A stretch of 64,000 nt of DNA from Escherichia coli (GCF_036507355.1 NZ_AP027877.1); one strand, 5' to 3'; shown: positions 45,057 through 48,721, counted from the stretch's first letter. Notes: generated from the letters alone by a model not told the origin. Translations and numbers: made by a program.

Positions 45057-46454
45057 ATTTTTACCCGAGTCGCTAATTTTTGCCGCAAGGTGCTAAGCCG
45101 CGAGGAAAGCGAGGCTGAACAGGCAGTCGCCCGTCCACAGGTGACGGTGATCCCGCGTGAGCAGCATGCTATTTCCCGCAAAGATATCAGTGAAAATGCC
45201 CTGAAGGTAATGTACAGGCTCAATAAAGCGGGATACGAAGCCTGGCTGGTTGGCGGCGGCGTGCGCGACCTGTTACTTGGCAAAAAGCCGAAAGACTTTG
45301 ACGTAACCACTAACGCCACGCCTGAGCAGGTGCGCAAACTGTTCCGTAACTGCCGCCTGGTGGGTCGCCGTTTCCGTCTGGCTCATGTGATGTTTGGCCC
45401 GGAGATTATCGAAGTTGCGACCTTCCGTGGACACCACGAAGGTAACGTCAGCGACCGCACGACCTCCCAACGCGGGCAAAACGGCATGTTGCTGCGCGAC
45501 AACATTTTCGGCTCCATCGAAGAAGACGCCCAGCGCCGCGATTTCACTATCAACAGCCTGTATTACAGCGTAGCGGATTTTACCGTCCGTGATTACGTTG
45601 GCGGTATGAAGGATCTGAAGGACGGCGTTATCCGTCTGATTGGTAACCCGGAAACGCGCTACCGTGAAGATCCGGTACGTATGCTGCGCGCAGTACGTTT
45701 TGCCGCCAAATTGGGTATGCGCATCAGCCCGGAAACCGCAGAACCGATCCCTCGCCTCGCTACCCTGCTGAACGATATCCCACCGGCACGCCTGTTTGAA
45801 GAATCGCTTAAACTGCTACAAGCGGGCTACGGTTACGAAACCTATAAGCTGCTGTGTGAATATCATCTGTTCCAGCCGCTGTTCCCGACCATTACCCGCT
45901 ACTTCACGGAAAATGGCGACAGCCCGATGGAGCGGATCATTGAACAGGTGCTGAAGAATACCGATACGCGTATCCATAACGATATGCGCGTGAACCCGGC
46001 GTTCCTGTTTGCCGCCATGTTCTGGTACCCACTGCTGGAGACGGCACAGAAGATCGCCCAGGAAAGCGGCCTGACCTATCACGACGCTTTCGCGCTGGCG
46101 ATGAACGACGTGCTGGACGAAGCCTGCCGTTCACTGGCAATCCCGAAACGTCTGACGACGTTAACCCGCGATATCTGGCAGTTGCAGTTGCGTATGTCCC
46201 GACGTCAGGGTAAACGTGCATGGAAACTGCTGGAGCATCCTAAGTTCCGTGCGGCTTATGACCTGTTGGCCTTGCGAGCTGAAGTTGAACGTAACGCTGA
46301 ACTGCAGCGTCTGGTGAAATGGTGGGGTGAGTTCCAGGTTTCCGCGCCACCAGACCAAAAAGGGATGCTCAACGAGCTGGATGAAGAACCGTCACCGCGT
46401 CGTCGTACTCGTCGTCCACGCAAACGCGCACCACGTCGTGAGGGTACCGCATGA
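45057..46454 (+). CDS. pcnB: Poly(A) polymerase I (non-canonical AUU start)
   Basis: ORF 45036..46454; established PAP I N-terminus begins [18 protein letters not shown] at ATT 45057, preceded by GAGG. Confidence 0.9.
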
Positions 46455-46930
46455 CAGTGGCGTATATTGCCATAGGCAGCAATCTGGCCTCTCCGCTGGA
46501 GCAGGTCAATGCTGCCCTGAAAGCATTAGGCGATATCCCTGAAAGCCACATTCTTGCCGTTTCTTCGTTTTACCGCACTCCACCGCTGGGGCCGCAAGAT
46601 CAACCCGATTACTTAAATGCAGCCGTAGCGCTGGAAACCTCTCTTGCCCCTGAAGAGCTACTCAATCACACTCAGCGTATTGAGTTACAACAAGGTCGCG
46701 TCCGTAAAGCGGAACGCTGGGGACCGCGCACGCTGGATCTCGACATCATGCTGTTTGGTAATGAAGTAATAAATACCGAACGCCTGACCGTTCCGCACTA
46801 CGATATGAAGAATCGTGGATTTATGCTGTGGCCGCTGTTTGAAATCGCGCCGGAGTTGGTGTTTCCTGATGGGGAGACGTTGCGTGAAATTTTACATGCA
46901 AGAAAATTTAGTAAATTAAACCAGTGGTAA
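46451..46930 (+). CDS. folK: 6-hydroxymethyl-7,8-dihydropterin pyrophosphokinase
   Basis: 159-aa [66 protein letters not shown]; overlaps pcnB stop by 4 nt. Confidence 0.95.
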
Positions 46931-47076
46931 TTTATTAATTTCGTGAATATAAATAATTTCCGAAAATCACATCATTCCAATTCCCAAACCAATCCTATTA
47001 GAGTAGACACTAGCTACATCAATTAATATTTAAATGCATCCTACCCATCTCCTTACACGAAACATCTCCATTTTGA

Positions 47077-47117
47077 AATTTAAATTTACTTAACCCTGAT
47101 TTAAGTAAATTTAAATT
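47077..47117. promoter_or_regulatory. 17-bp perfect palindrome in AT-rich yadN upstream region (candidate operator)
   Basis: AATTTAAATTTACTTAA -7 nt spacer CCCTGAT- TTAAGTAAATTTAAATT; ~175 bp upstream of yadN start. Confidence 0.4.
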
Positions 47118-47290
47118 GCTCAAGTAACTTTAAAATGCACAATATGCGTCCTAATGAGGAATGATTGTAAATTTAGGTAACAAACAATCATTTCTCATTA
47201 ATGTTTGAATATATCTTTATATATTTGAGCCATGAATAGTCATACTTCAAATTAATGAACTACCTTATGGAATATTATTCAAGGATTATT

Positions 47291-47875
47291 ATGTCGAAAA
47301 AATTAGGTTTTGCGCTGTCCGGCTTGATGTTAGCAATGGTTGCTGGTAATGCTTCTGCAGCACTGGACGGTGGCCAATTAAATATCAGCGGTCTGGTAGT
47401 TGATAACACCTGTGAAACCCGTGTTGATGGTGGCAACAAAGATGGCCTGGTGCTGCTGCAAACTGCAACTGTTAGTGAAATCACTGCAGGCGTACTGAAT
47501 GACACCGTAGGTGCTAAAGCTAAACCTTTCAGCATCACCGTTGACTGCAGCAATGCGAACCCGAATCCTGGTAGCACTGCTAAAATGACCTTCGGTTCCG
47601 TGTTCTTTGGCAATAGCAAAGGGACTCTGAACAACGATATGTCTATTAATACCCCGGCTGATGGTGTAAATATTGCCCTGCACAATATTGATGGTTCTAC
47701 TATCAAACAGGTTCAAATTAACAACCCAGGTGATGCTTACATTAAAACCATGGATGCAACCTCAAAAACTGCAACTTTTGATTTTAAAGCATCCTATGTT
47801 CGTGCTGAAACAAGCACAGCACCAACTGCTGGTTATGTTAAAACCAACACTGCATATACCATTACTTACCAGTAA
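47291..47875 (+). CDS. yadN: Fimbrial major subunit-like protein YadN
   Basis: ORF 47255..47875; 194-aa product from [23 protein letters not shown] (signal peptide), fimbrial subunit C-terminus ...YTITYQ. Confidence 0.85.
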
Positions 47876-47980
47876 TCATTCGTTAGATTCATAAAACGAA
47901 TATATTTGGGAGATAACATTCAACTTACTTAGTAGTGGAATATTACTCCCTATTTTAATTAACTCTGTCAGGAATGGTTT

Positions 47981-48721
47981 ATGTTTTTAAACGCTAAACA
48001 TACTGCAGCATTATGTTTCGCCGCTTGTATGAGTTTGAGTACATCGGCAATAGCAGATATCGTAATTTCAGGAACTCGCGTAATTTATAAAAGCGATCAA
48101 AAAAGCGTGAACGTTCGTCTGGAAAATAAAGGGAATAATCCGTTACTTGTTCAGAGCTGGCTGGATACTGGCGACGACAGTGCTGAACCGGGGAGCATTA
48201 AAGTTCCATTTACCGCCACCCCACCGGTTTCACGTATTGATGCCAAACGTGGTCAAACCATTAAATTGATGTACACGGCTTCTTCGCCTCTGCCAAAAGA
48301 CAGAGAAAGTGTTTTCTGGTTTAACGTACTTGAAGTTCCACCCAAGCCTGACGCCGATAAAGTCGCTAATCAGAGCCTTCTGCAATTAGCTTTCCGTACG
48401 CGTATCAAACTGTTTTATCGCCCGGAAGGTTTAAACGGACTGCCAACTGATGCACCAGCTGCACTGAAATGGTCATGGACAACCTCTGCTGGCAAAACTG
48501 CATTGCGCGTCGCAAATCCGACGCCGTATCACGTGTCATTCAGTAGTGGTGATTTAGTCGCCAATGGCAAAACCTACCCACTGGACGTCAAAATGGTGGC
48601 CCCGCTGAGTGAAGAAACCTTCTACATAAAAGGCATGAGTGGTAAAGCAAGTTCGGCAAAAGTGCATTTCTTCGCCATAAATGACTTTGGTGGCGCAATT
48701 GAAGGCAATGCCAGCCTGTAA
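47981..48721 (+). CDS. yadV: Periplasmic fimbrial chaperone (PapD-like)
   Basis: 246-aa ORF, signal peptide, RVIYKSDQKSVNVRLENKGNNPLLVQSW chaperone N-domain. Confidence 0.9.
   Translation: MFLNAKHTAALCFAACMSLSTSAIADIVISGTRVIYKSDQKSVNVRLENKGNNPLLVQSWLDTGDDSAEPGSIKVPFTATPPVSRIDAKRGQTIKLMYTASSPLPKDRESVFWFNVLEVPPKPDADKVANQSLLQLAFRTRIKLFYRPEGLNGLPTDAPAALKWSWTTSAGKTALRVANPTPYHVSFSSGDLVANGKTYPLDVKMVAPLSEETFYIKGMSGKASSAKVHFFAINDFGGAIEGNASL

Follow-up and report, generated by a model that had tools for sequence, protein, structure and literature searches.

The stretch of Escherichia coli DNA analysed here (the window, 64 kb in length) carries, according to the annotation of an identical genome (strain L73), the genes dksA-gluQRS-pcnB-folK-yadN, followed by chaperone-usher genes, four subunit/adhesin genes and panB, all on the same strand. 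The folK gene (46451-46930, plus strand) lies upstream of, and co-directional with, yadN (47291-47875, plus strand; ATG at 47291), which encodes the major fimbrial subunit and is the first gene of the yad operon. The yadN of the window is a rare allele, with 88% amino-acid identity to K-12 YadN and 85% to that of CFT073. Between the two genes lies a spacer of 360 nt with 26.9% GC, and within it a palindrome whose two 17-nt arms are 100% complementary. The left arm, AATTTAAATTTACTTAA, occupies 47077-47093 (columns 13-29 of the allele alignment used below), the 7-nt loop CCCTGAT 47094-47100, and the right arm, TTAAGTAAATTTAAATT, 47101-47117 (columns 37-53); none of the three is assigned to a strand. 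The folK stop codon is 146 nt from the left arm, and the end of the right arm is 173 nt from the yadN ATG. The original prediction had described perfect 17-bp arms around a 7-bp spacer, about 175 bp upstream of yadN in a region of some 360 bp with very low GC, and a repeat search of the window together with the annotation bears out each of these points (17/17 pairs, 7 nt, 173 nt, 360 nt).

It had also been argued that such arms are improbable by chance, and this is now firmly supported. In 3,000 dinucleotide-preserving shuffles of the spacer (loop of at most 20 nt), the longest perfect inverted repeat was 14 bp, and 12 bp was reached in just 0.3% of them. The 17-bp repeat is also the longest perfect inverted repeat of the whole window, the runner-up having 12 bp. 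Folded as a single strand, the palindrome reached -15.0 kcal/mol when treated as RNA and -13.4 kcal/mol when treated as DNA (z -6.05 and -7.1, respectively), and its perfect, A/T-rich arms of at least about 13 bp and its short loop are those of a candidate cruciform-forming sequence. The palindrome is therefore real, and chance is excluded as its origin.

To place this element relative to the yad promoter, sigma-70-like sites were searched for by a position-weight scan of 12 alleles. Only one candidate stayed at the same place of the alignment in every class; its lowest score over these alleles was 4.5, vs -0.6 for the next column. Its putative -35 element, TTGCTC (47116-47121, plus strand), shares two nucleotides with the end of the right arm, and its putative -10 element is CACAAT (47138-47143, plus strand; CAAAAT or TACATT in other alleles). 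Transcription would thus start near 47150, with the palindrome extending from about -74 to -34 and its centre (47097) near -53. A scan with promoter and terminator consensus sequences gave zero matches in the folK-yadN spacer. In CFT073, a luciferase reporter carrying -229 to -24 showed promoter activity, about 100-fold repression by H-NS and induction by serum (PMC13245861). The reporter's forward primer starts 12 bp 5' of the homologous palindrome and its reverse primer ends 24 nt short of the ATG, and therefore an active promoter lies at or downstream of the palindrome. The location of the palindrome within the regulatory region of the yad chaperone-usher operon, as originally predicted, is confirmed by this homologous fragment. 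Alleles of the ST131 type (L041-L047, L025 and L011) have a 10-bp deletion between the palindrome's central dyad and the putative -10 (alignment columns 49-58), so that a degenerate right arm, TGGATA, occupies the -35 position and the dyad sits one turn closer, on the same face of the helix.

Three other features of the spacer deserve mention. The block GAATATAAATA (46945-46955), 15 nt past the folK stop, is invariant in 13 of the 14 alleles checked, including L011, and is followed by about 100 nt that are almost unalignable between classes; it could be the -10 of a further promoter or a 3' element of folK. An upstream promoter at this block, which would put the palindrome in a 5' UTR, was set aside since the CFT073 reporter is active without it, although an additional promoter there is possible. 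The last codons of folK, AAATTTAGTAAATTAAA (46904-46920), resemble ATTTAAGTAAATTTAAA (47099-47115) of the right arm at 14 of 17 positions and are even closer to the right arm of the CFT073 type, and an old duplication, which this may reflect, could not be told apart from chance in A/T-rich DNA. Finally, a second inverted repeat, TAATGAGGAATGATTGT / ACAATCATTTCTCATTA (47152-47200, no strand assigned), lies just 3' of the putative -10 and begins 2-3 nt past the predicted transcription start. It has 17-nt arms with 16 Watson-Crick pairs and one G.T around a 15-nt loop, and folds as RNA with -20.6 kcal/mol (z -6.0). Its outer 7-10 bp are kept in all classes, one pair being G:C in some alleles and C:G in others (8 vs 7), and it could form a 5'-terminal mRNA stem-loop. 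Within its loop, GTAAATTTAGGTAAC (47167-47181) matches a CpxR-type direct repeat with at most two mismatches (the CpxR consensus is GTAAA-N5-GTAAA) at the same alignment position in 16/17 alleles; alleles of the CFT073 and ST131 classes have a sequence here that conforms to an extended -10 (TGnTAnAnT).

The palindrome region was compared across 17 distinct versions, drawn from genome records and from 29 metagenome contigs that had been fetched by a pattern anchored on the yadN ribosome-binding region and not on the palindrome itself. The promoter allele of the window is rare, being found with a full-length spacer in 43 of 5,426 complete E. coli genomes, and has 17/17 pairs. The K-12/O157 type (2,959 genomes) is about 76-77% identical to it over 47044-47291. 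In K-12, 14/17 pairs are kept, together with an 11-bp inner stem closed by the loop TTG, and in O157 13/17, one pair having mutated on both sides to give a G.A mismatch. A metagenome allele, L019, has 16/17. Arms of 13-16 bp characterize the CFT073 type (561 genomes), in which pair 15/51 is T:A in 2009C-3133 (16/16), a G.A mismatch in CFT073 itself (15/16) and G:C in SCU-484 and E2348/69 (16/16). The ST131 type (1,076 of the 5,426 genomes) retains (A/G)CTTAA-N7-TTAAGT alone, with 6 Watson-Crick pairs left. Similarly, only the short dyad is kept, with degenerate long arms, in L011, an outgroup-like Escherichia whose folK is 87% identical to that of the window, compared to 94-98% among E. coli folK genes. 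Hairpin stability follows the same gradient, with z of -6.05 in the window, -3.8 in K-12, -3.5 in CFT073 and -0.05 in the ST131 class, whose hairpin is no more stable than its shuffles. The palindrome has 17/17 pairs in the window vs 16/17 in L019, 14/17 in K-12, 13/17 in O157 and 15-16/16 in the CFT073 type, as expected of a quasipalindrome under template-switch correction. Degeneracy in otherwise conserved yad promoters had been named in advance as an argument against a functional element. The outcome is divided: every one of the 17 alleles keeps the core dyad, and the long arms, perfect or nearly so in some lineages only, are degenerate in the ST131 class and in L011.

The yad locus and the 3' part of folK (46451-48721 in the window, and related loci) are unusually divergent between E. 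coli lineages. The window folK is 94-95% identical to those of CFT073 and L025, while between-lineage identity is 85-88% for YadN (amino acids) and about 60-77% for the promoter. At least three or four allele classes exist, plus mosaic junctions at spacer query positions 39, 66 and 84, a pattern that suggests long-lived alleles exchanged by recombination.

The core dyad, TTTACTTA...TAAGTAAA (47085-47109, no strand assigned), forms a helix of 47085-47092 with 47102-47109 and is the sole part of the palindrome that is paired in 17/17 alleles. It is also the sole helix, of 8 bp, that RNAalifold predicts from the 17 alleles. Every allele examined carries it as (A/G)CTTAA-N7-TTAAG(T/A) or, in the CFT073 class, as ACTAA-N9-TTAGT. 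Classes differ by 0-12% within the core, 12-21% within the arms, 23-47% within the flanking promoter and 43-100% within the loop, and neither loop nor dyad has suffered an indel in the 17 alleles although indels occur nearby. Dyad symmetry, conserved half-sites and fixed spacing are found together (columns 21-28/38-45, invariant or co-varying). In simulations of neutral drift with 9-15% change per lineage, a perfect palindrome of 17/17 pairs survived in 0.5-4% of cases. The far lower divergence of the core compared to its surroundings shows that its sequence is constrained.

The arms changed in a different way. Differences between lineages tend to strike both partners of a pair and so to restore complementarity, whereas the loop varies freely. 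Pairs 15/51, 20/46 and 27/39 were changed on both sides; 20/46 and 27/39 switch from T:A to A:T between classes, and 15/51 passes from T:A through G.A (CFT073) to G:C (SCU-484 and E2348/69). An adjacent TT/AA double change, by which two pairs are completed, separates K-12 from L019. In the allele alignment, 85.7% of the cells of the 17-pair helix form standard pairs, and the palindrome and the second repeat scored together are 82% paired vs 25-49% in slid registers, the structure used for covariation scoring having been drawn from one of the aligned sequences. For the two helices together, the number of pairs changed on both sides (6, shuffled mean 5.0, reached in 157/500 shuffles) and the pair types (reached in 257/500) were not significant in this near-pure A/T alphabet. 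Counts of G.U vs A.C, used as a measure of strand asymmetry, gave no sign that a particular RNA strand folds: helix 2 had 27 vs 26, and the 14 G.U cells of helix 1 all came from one allele class. Taken by lineage, the alignment suggests that outer-arm complementarity was restored more often than chance in some lineages.

Regulation of yad in K-12 was the subject of work by Larsonneur et al. in 2016 and reportedly involves ArcA. In K-12, H-NS binds the folK/yadN spacer, which is listed as a "promoter island" (PMC3661553); three ChIP datasets name yadN as an H-NS target, and yadN goes up 2.4-fold when SlyA is over-produced (PMC5797941). Expression of yadN also rises on over-production of BolA (PMC4337573), whose motif is unrelated to the palindrome, and on inhibition of Rho (PMC10980228), whereas LmiA acts indirectly, with no binding to PyadN (PMC11657066). 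For K-12 yad, effects of ArcA, of low temperature and of anaerobiosis have been reported, as cited in PMC13245861. Expression conditions are strain-specific and include ambient temperature with anaerobiosis, 41 C, acid and serum (PMC7098969; PMC13245861), and cis-variants upstream of yadN have been associated with expression differences among isolates (bioRxiv 10.1101/2025.06.10.658842). A 2026 study described Yad as not phase-variable and postulated an unidentified regulator that counteracts H-NS at yad (PMC13245861). In that study, both EC958 and CFT073 showed derepression of yad when hns was deleted and induction of yad by serum, the latter being 15-fold in CFT073 vs 4-fold in EC958 (PMC13245861). 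EC958 (ST131) has the ST131-type promoter, since the check primer published for EC958 finds a match in the ST131-type loci L041 and L045. A strain with a degenerate palindrome is thus still repressed by H-NS and induced by serum, and therefore the long arms are dispensable for both responses. An operator or an H-NS nucleation site, as originally suggested, may still apply to the core, the long arms not being needed for these two responses. Our searches of the accessible literature found no mention of the palindrome, and no footprint or EMSA data on it.

We propose, with a probability of about 0.45, that the upstream part of the yad promoter, which H-NS silences, has long contained a quasipalindrome, and that the 41 bp seen here are a version of it that was perfected in particular lineages. 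It would consist of two layers. The short dyad would be old and conserved in sequence, perhaps for protein contact or promoter architecture in DNA covered by H-NS, and the arms would have been extended and maintained, perfect or nearly so, in particular lineages. The long perfect arms would be made and kept by intrastrand template-switching during replication, one arm being copied from the other, in DNA that is presumably not transcribed (about -74 to -34 of the core promoter). Template-switching perfects quasipalindromes in E. coli (PMC7202029), and perfect inverted repeats are over-abundant and over-conserved in this species, which the authors of that survey credit to template-switch correction (PMC5941160). 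A mutational origin of this kind, which the original prediction had not considered, fits the pattern of change best. The resemblance to template-switch-corrected quasipalindromes (the Ripley model and the thyA and lacZ reporters of E. coli) is close. The element is imperfect in relatives and perfect here, the changes raise complementarity and include an adjacent double change, and the palindrome is likewise 17 bp long, intergenic and chromosomal. It differs in that its core is also conserved in sequence, which mutation alone does not explain, and in that its history is read from alleles.

Some observations pull in other directions. Coordinated changes in both arms would equally arise under selection for a hairpin or cruciform, and the arms diverge less than the flanks, as would be expected from selection on sequence and not from mutational correction alone. 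The K-12/O157 type, the commonest allele, tolerates 3-4 mismatches, and thus correction is not efficient everywhere. The stronger serum induction in CFT073 than in EC958 leaves room for a quantitative role of the arms. A selected structure, a dimeric operator on the core and H-NS nucleation may each play a part and are not mutually exclusive.

An operator for a dimeric regulator is possible but doubtful. A homodimer, for instance an H-NS antagonist answering serum, oxygen or temperature, would contact the half-sites ACTTAA and TTAAGT across a 7-bp gap, the centre lying about 53 bp upstream of the predicted start, or 43 bp in the ST131 class. The near-invariant half-sites with a free spacer sequence and no indels are as in homodimeric operators of the SlyA/MarR type (TTA-N6-TAA), as is the position of the dyad, upstream of and adjoining the putative -35; the ST131-class deletion shifts it by one helical turn, and an H-NS-counteracting regulator has been postulated (PMC13245861). 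However, the symmetric double changes in both half-sites (pair 27/39, CFT073 class) are unexpected for independent protein contacts, the yad cluster is without a regulator gene, the window has no excess of half-site matches (14 vs 12 expected), and LmiA does not bind PyadN (PMC11657066). No match to SlyA, ArcA, CpxR or NarL-type sites was found on the palindrome, the consensus sites being those generally known or that of PMC5797941. Selection for a DNA structure, in which the A/T-only palindrome would extrude a cruciform or form lagging-strand hairpins under negative supercoiling and modulate promoter opening or nucleoid-protein binding, seems rather doubtful; it would make yad sensitive to supercoiling or temperature. 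The perfect arms (94% A/T), the short loop and A/T-rich context, the folding energy as DNA, the overlap with the putative -35 and upstream region, and outer arms that regain complementarity and not exact sequence are all consistent with it. Extrusion of a 41-bp repeat at the superhelical density found in vivo is uncertain, which counts against a cruciform, one of the originally suggested readings. In addition, about 20% of E. coli genomes lack the structure and still have a yad operon that is H-NS-repressed and serum-induced, and the K-12/O157 alleles do without 3-4 of its pairs; strain-specific conditions of yad expression would nevertheless suit such a structure (PMC7098969; PMC13245861). 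A variant to which we give little credence sees the palindrome as a structure-dependent tuning element, whose allele-specific arm length would set the escape of yad from H-NS silencing, either by cruciform extrusion at the -35/upstream region or through an anti-silencer recognising the dyad.

H-NS nucleation, in which the two inverted TAAATT-containing arms would bind H-NS with high affinity and seed its spread across the yad promoter, is unlikely. The high-affinity motif of H-NS is the 10-bp consensus tCGATAAATT, to which each arm is a 7/10 match, and matches with at most three mismatches are about as frequent in the window as expected from shuffles (521 vs 489). The arms are 94% A/T with TpA steps, but the entire 360-bp spacer is equally A/T-rich, and H-NS does not need dyad symmetry. 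At the level of the region, three K-12 ChIP datasets show binding of H-NS and the locus counts as a "promoter island" (PMC5797941, PMC3661553), and the CFT073 fragment beginning at the palindrome is repressed about 100-fold by H-NS; EC958 with its degenerate palindrome is repressed as well. H-NS-silenced chaperone-usher promoter islands are indeed the system to which the locus belongs, since the same K-12 locus is listed among them (PMC3661553), GC is low, weak promoter-like sites are many and H-NS repression is reported for yad of K-12, CFT073 and EC958. These islands are defined by composition, however, and a discrete dyad or a 17-bp perfect palindrome is not a described feature.

A role in RNA, as a terminator or insulator against pcnB-folK read-through or as part of a long yad 5' UTR, is also unlikely, and if anything more so. 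As in Rho-independent terminators, the plus-strand stem-loop would stand between a gene and the promoter that follows, 146 nt past the folK stop and just before the putative yad promoter, and no canonical terminator follows folK. The K-12 version, an 11-bp stem, is followed by UUUAAUUUGUU (a partial U-rich tail), departures in the ST131 class include U.G cells that are still pairable in plus-strand RNA, and yadN is up when Rho is inhibited (PMC10980228). But the stem is near-pure A:U, only one of its 17 pairs being G:C, and what comes after it in the window allele is GCTCAAGTAAC (GCUCAAG) and no U-tract; the spacer scan found no terminator, and the ST131 type lacks the hairpin, its version being no more stable than shuffles. 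The G.U excess of helix 1 comes from one lineage, helix 2 has none, and an Rfam scan of 46400-47800 at a permissive threshold returned only microRNA-model noise (17-22 bits vs thresholds of 90-195). The activity of the CFT073 reporter also means that the promoter need not lie upstream of the palindrome. Finally, a recombination site or mobile-element remnant (the end of an invertible switch, an integrase target or a MITE), which had been among the original suggestions, is essentially excluded. The fimS switch consists of two 9-bp repeats flanking a 314-bp invertible segment and has dedicated recombinases. The yad locus shares with such switches inverted repeats in a fimbrial promoter region, but its arms are 7 bp apart, which cannot serve as an invertible segment, there is no recombinase gene in the neighbourhood, and Yad is reported not to be phase-variable (PMC13245861). 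The divergent allele classes, the mosaic junctions and the IS1 and ISApl1 insertions in the folK-yadN spacer of some genomes might suggest recombination, but these junctions lie at query positions 39, 66, 84 and 277 and the palindrome at 147-187. The palindrome was single-copy per genome in every search, in contrast to dispersed repeats such as REP or MITE, and a species-level genome scan with a YadN alignment likewise gave one locus only. No match to the palindrome was found in phages, and in plasmids only two identical 655-kb non-mobilizable E. coli replicons matched, with 75% identity. As to the insertions themselves, in L051 (NZ_AP027754.1) IS1 directly follows the second inverted repeat (equivalent to about 47207) and most of the yad operon is lost, in L010 (NZ_AP017610.1) ISApl1 lies upstream of a CFT073-type promoter, and in L048, a window-type genome, IS1 lies within yadN.

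The perfected quasipalindrome is probably a fresh example of its kind in an H-NS-silenced fimbrial promoter, and an ordinary one if it is a mere mutational by-product. Pair 15/51 shows how a natural E. coli quasipalindrome changed step by step, from T:A by way of G.A to a compensated G:C, and the natural allele series (perfect, one mismatch, compensated, degenerate) could serve to separate structure from sequence. The yad promoter exists in at least three very divergent allele classes, and its cis-elements can now be mapped as a core dyad, a position-conserved promoter candidate, a second inverted repeat and a CpxR-like direct repeat. As the long palindrome is lineage-specific, the core and not the outer arms contains the first bases to mutate. 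Yad fimbriae have a part in bladder and bloodstream colonisation by extraintestinal E. coli. If the palindrome were a tuning element after all, it would explain differences between lineages in Yad expression, such as the 15-fold serum induction in CFT073 compared to the 4-fold induction in EC958.
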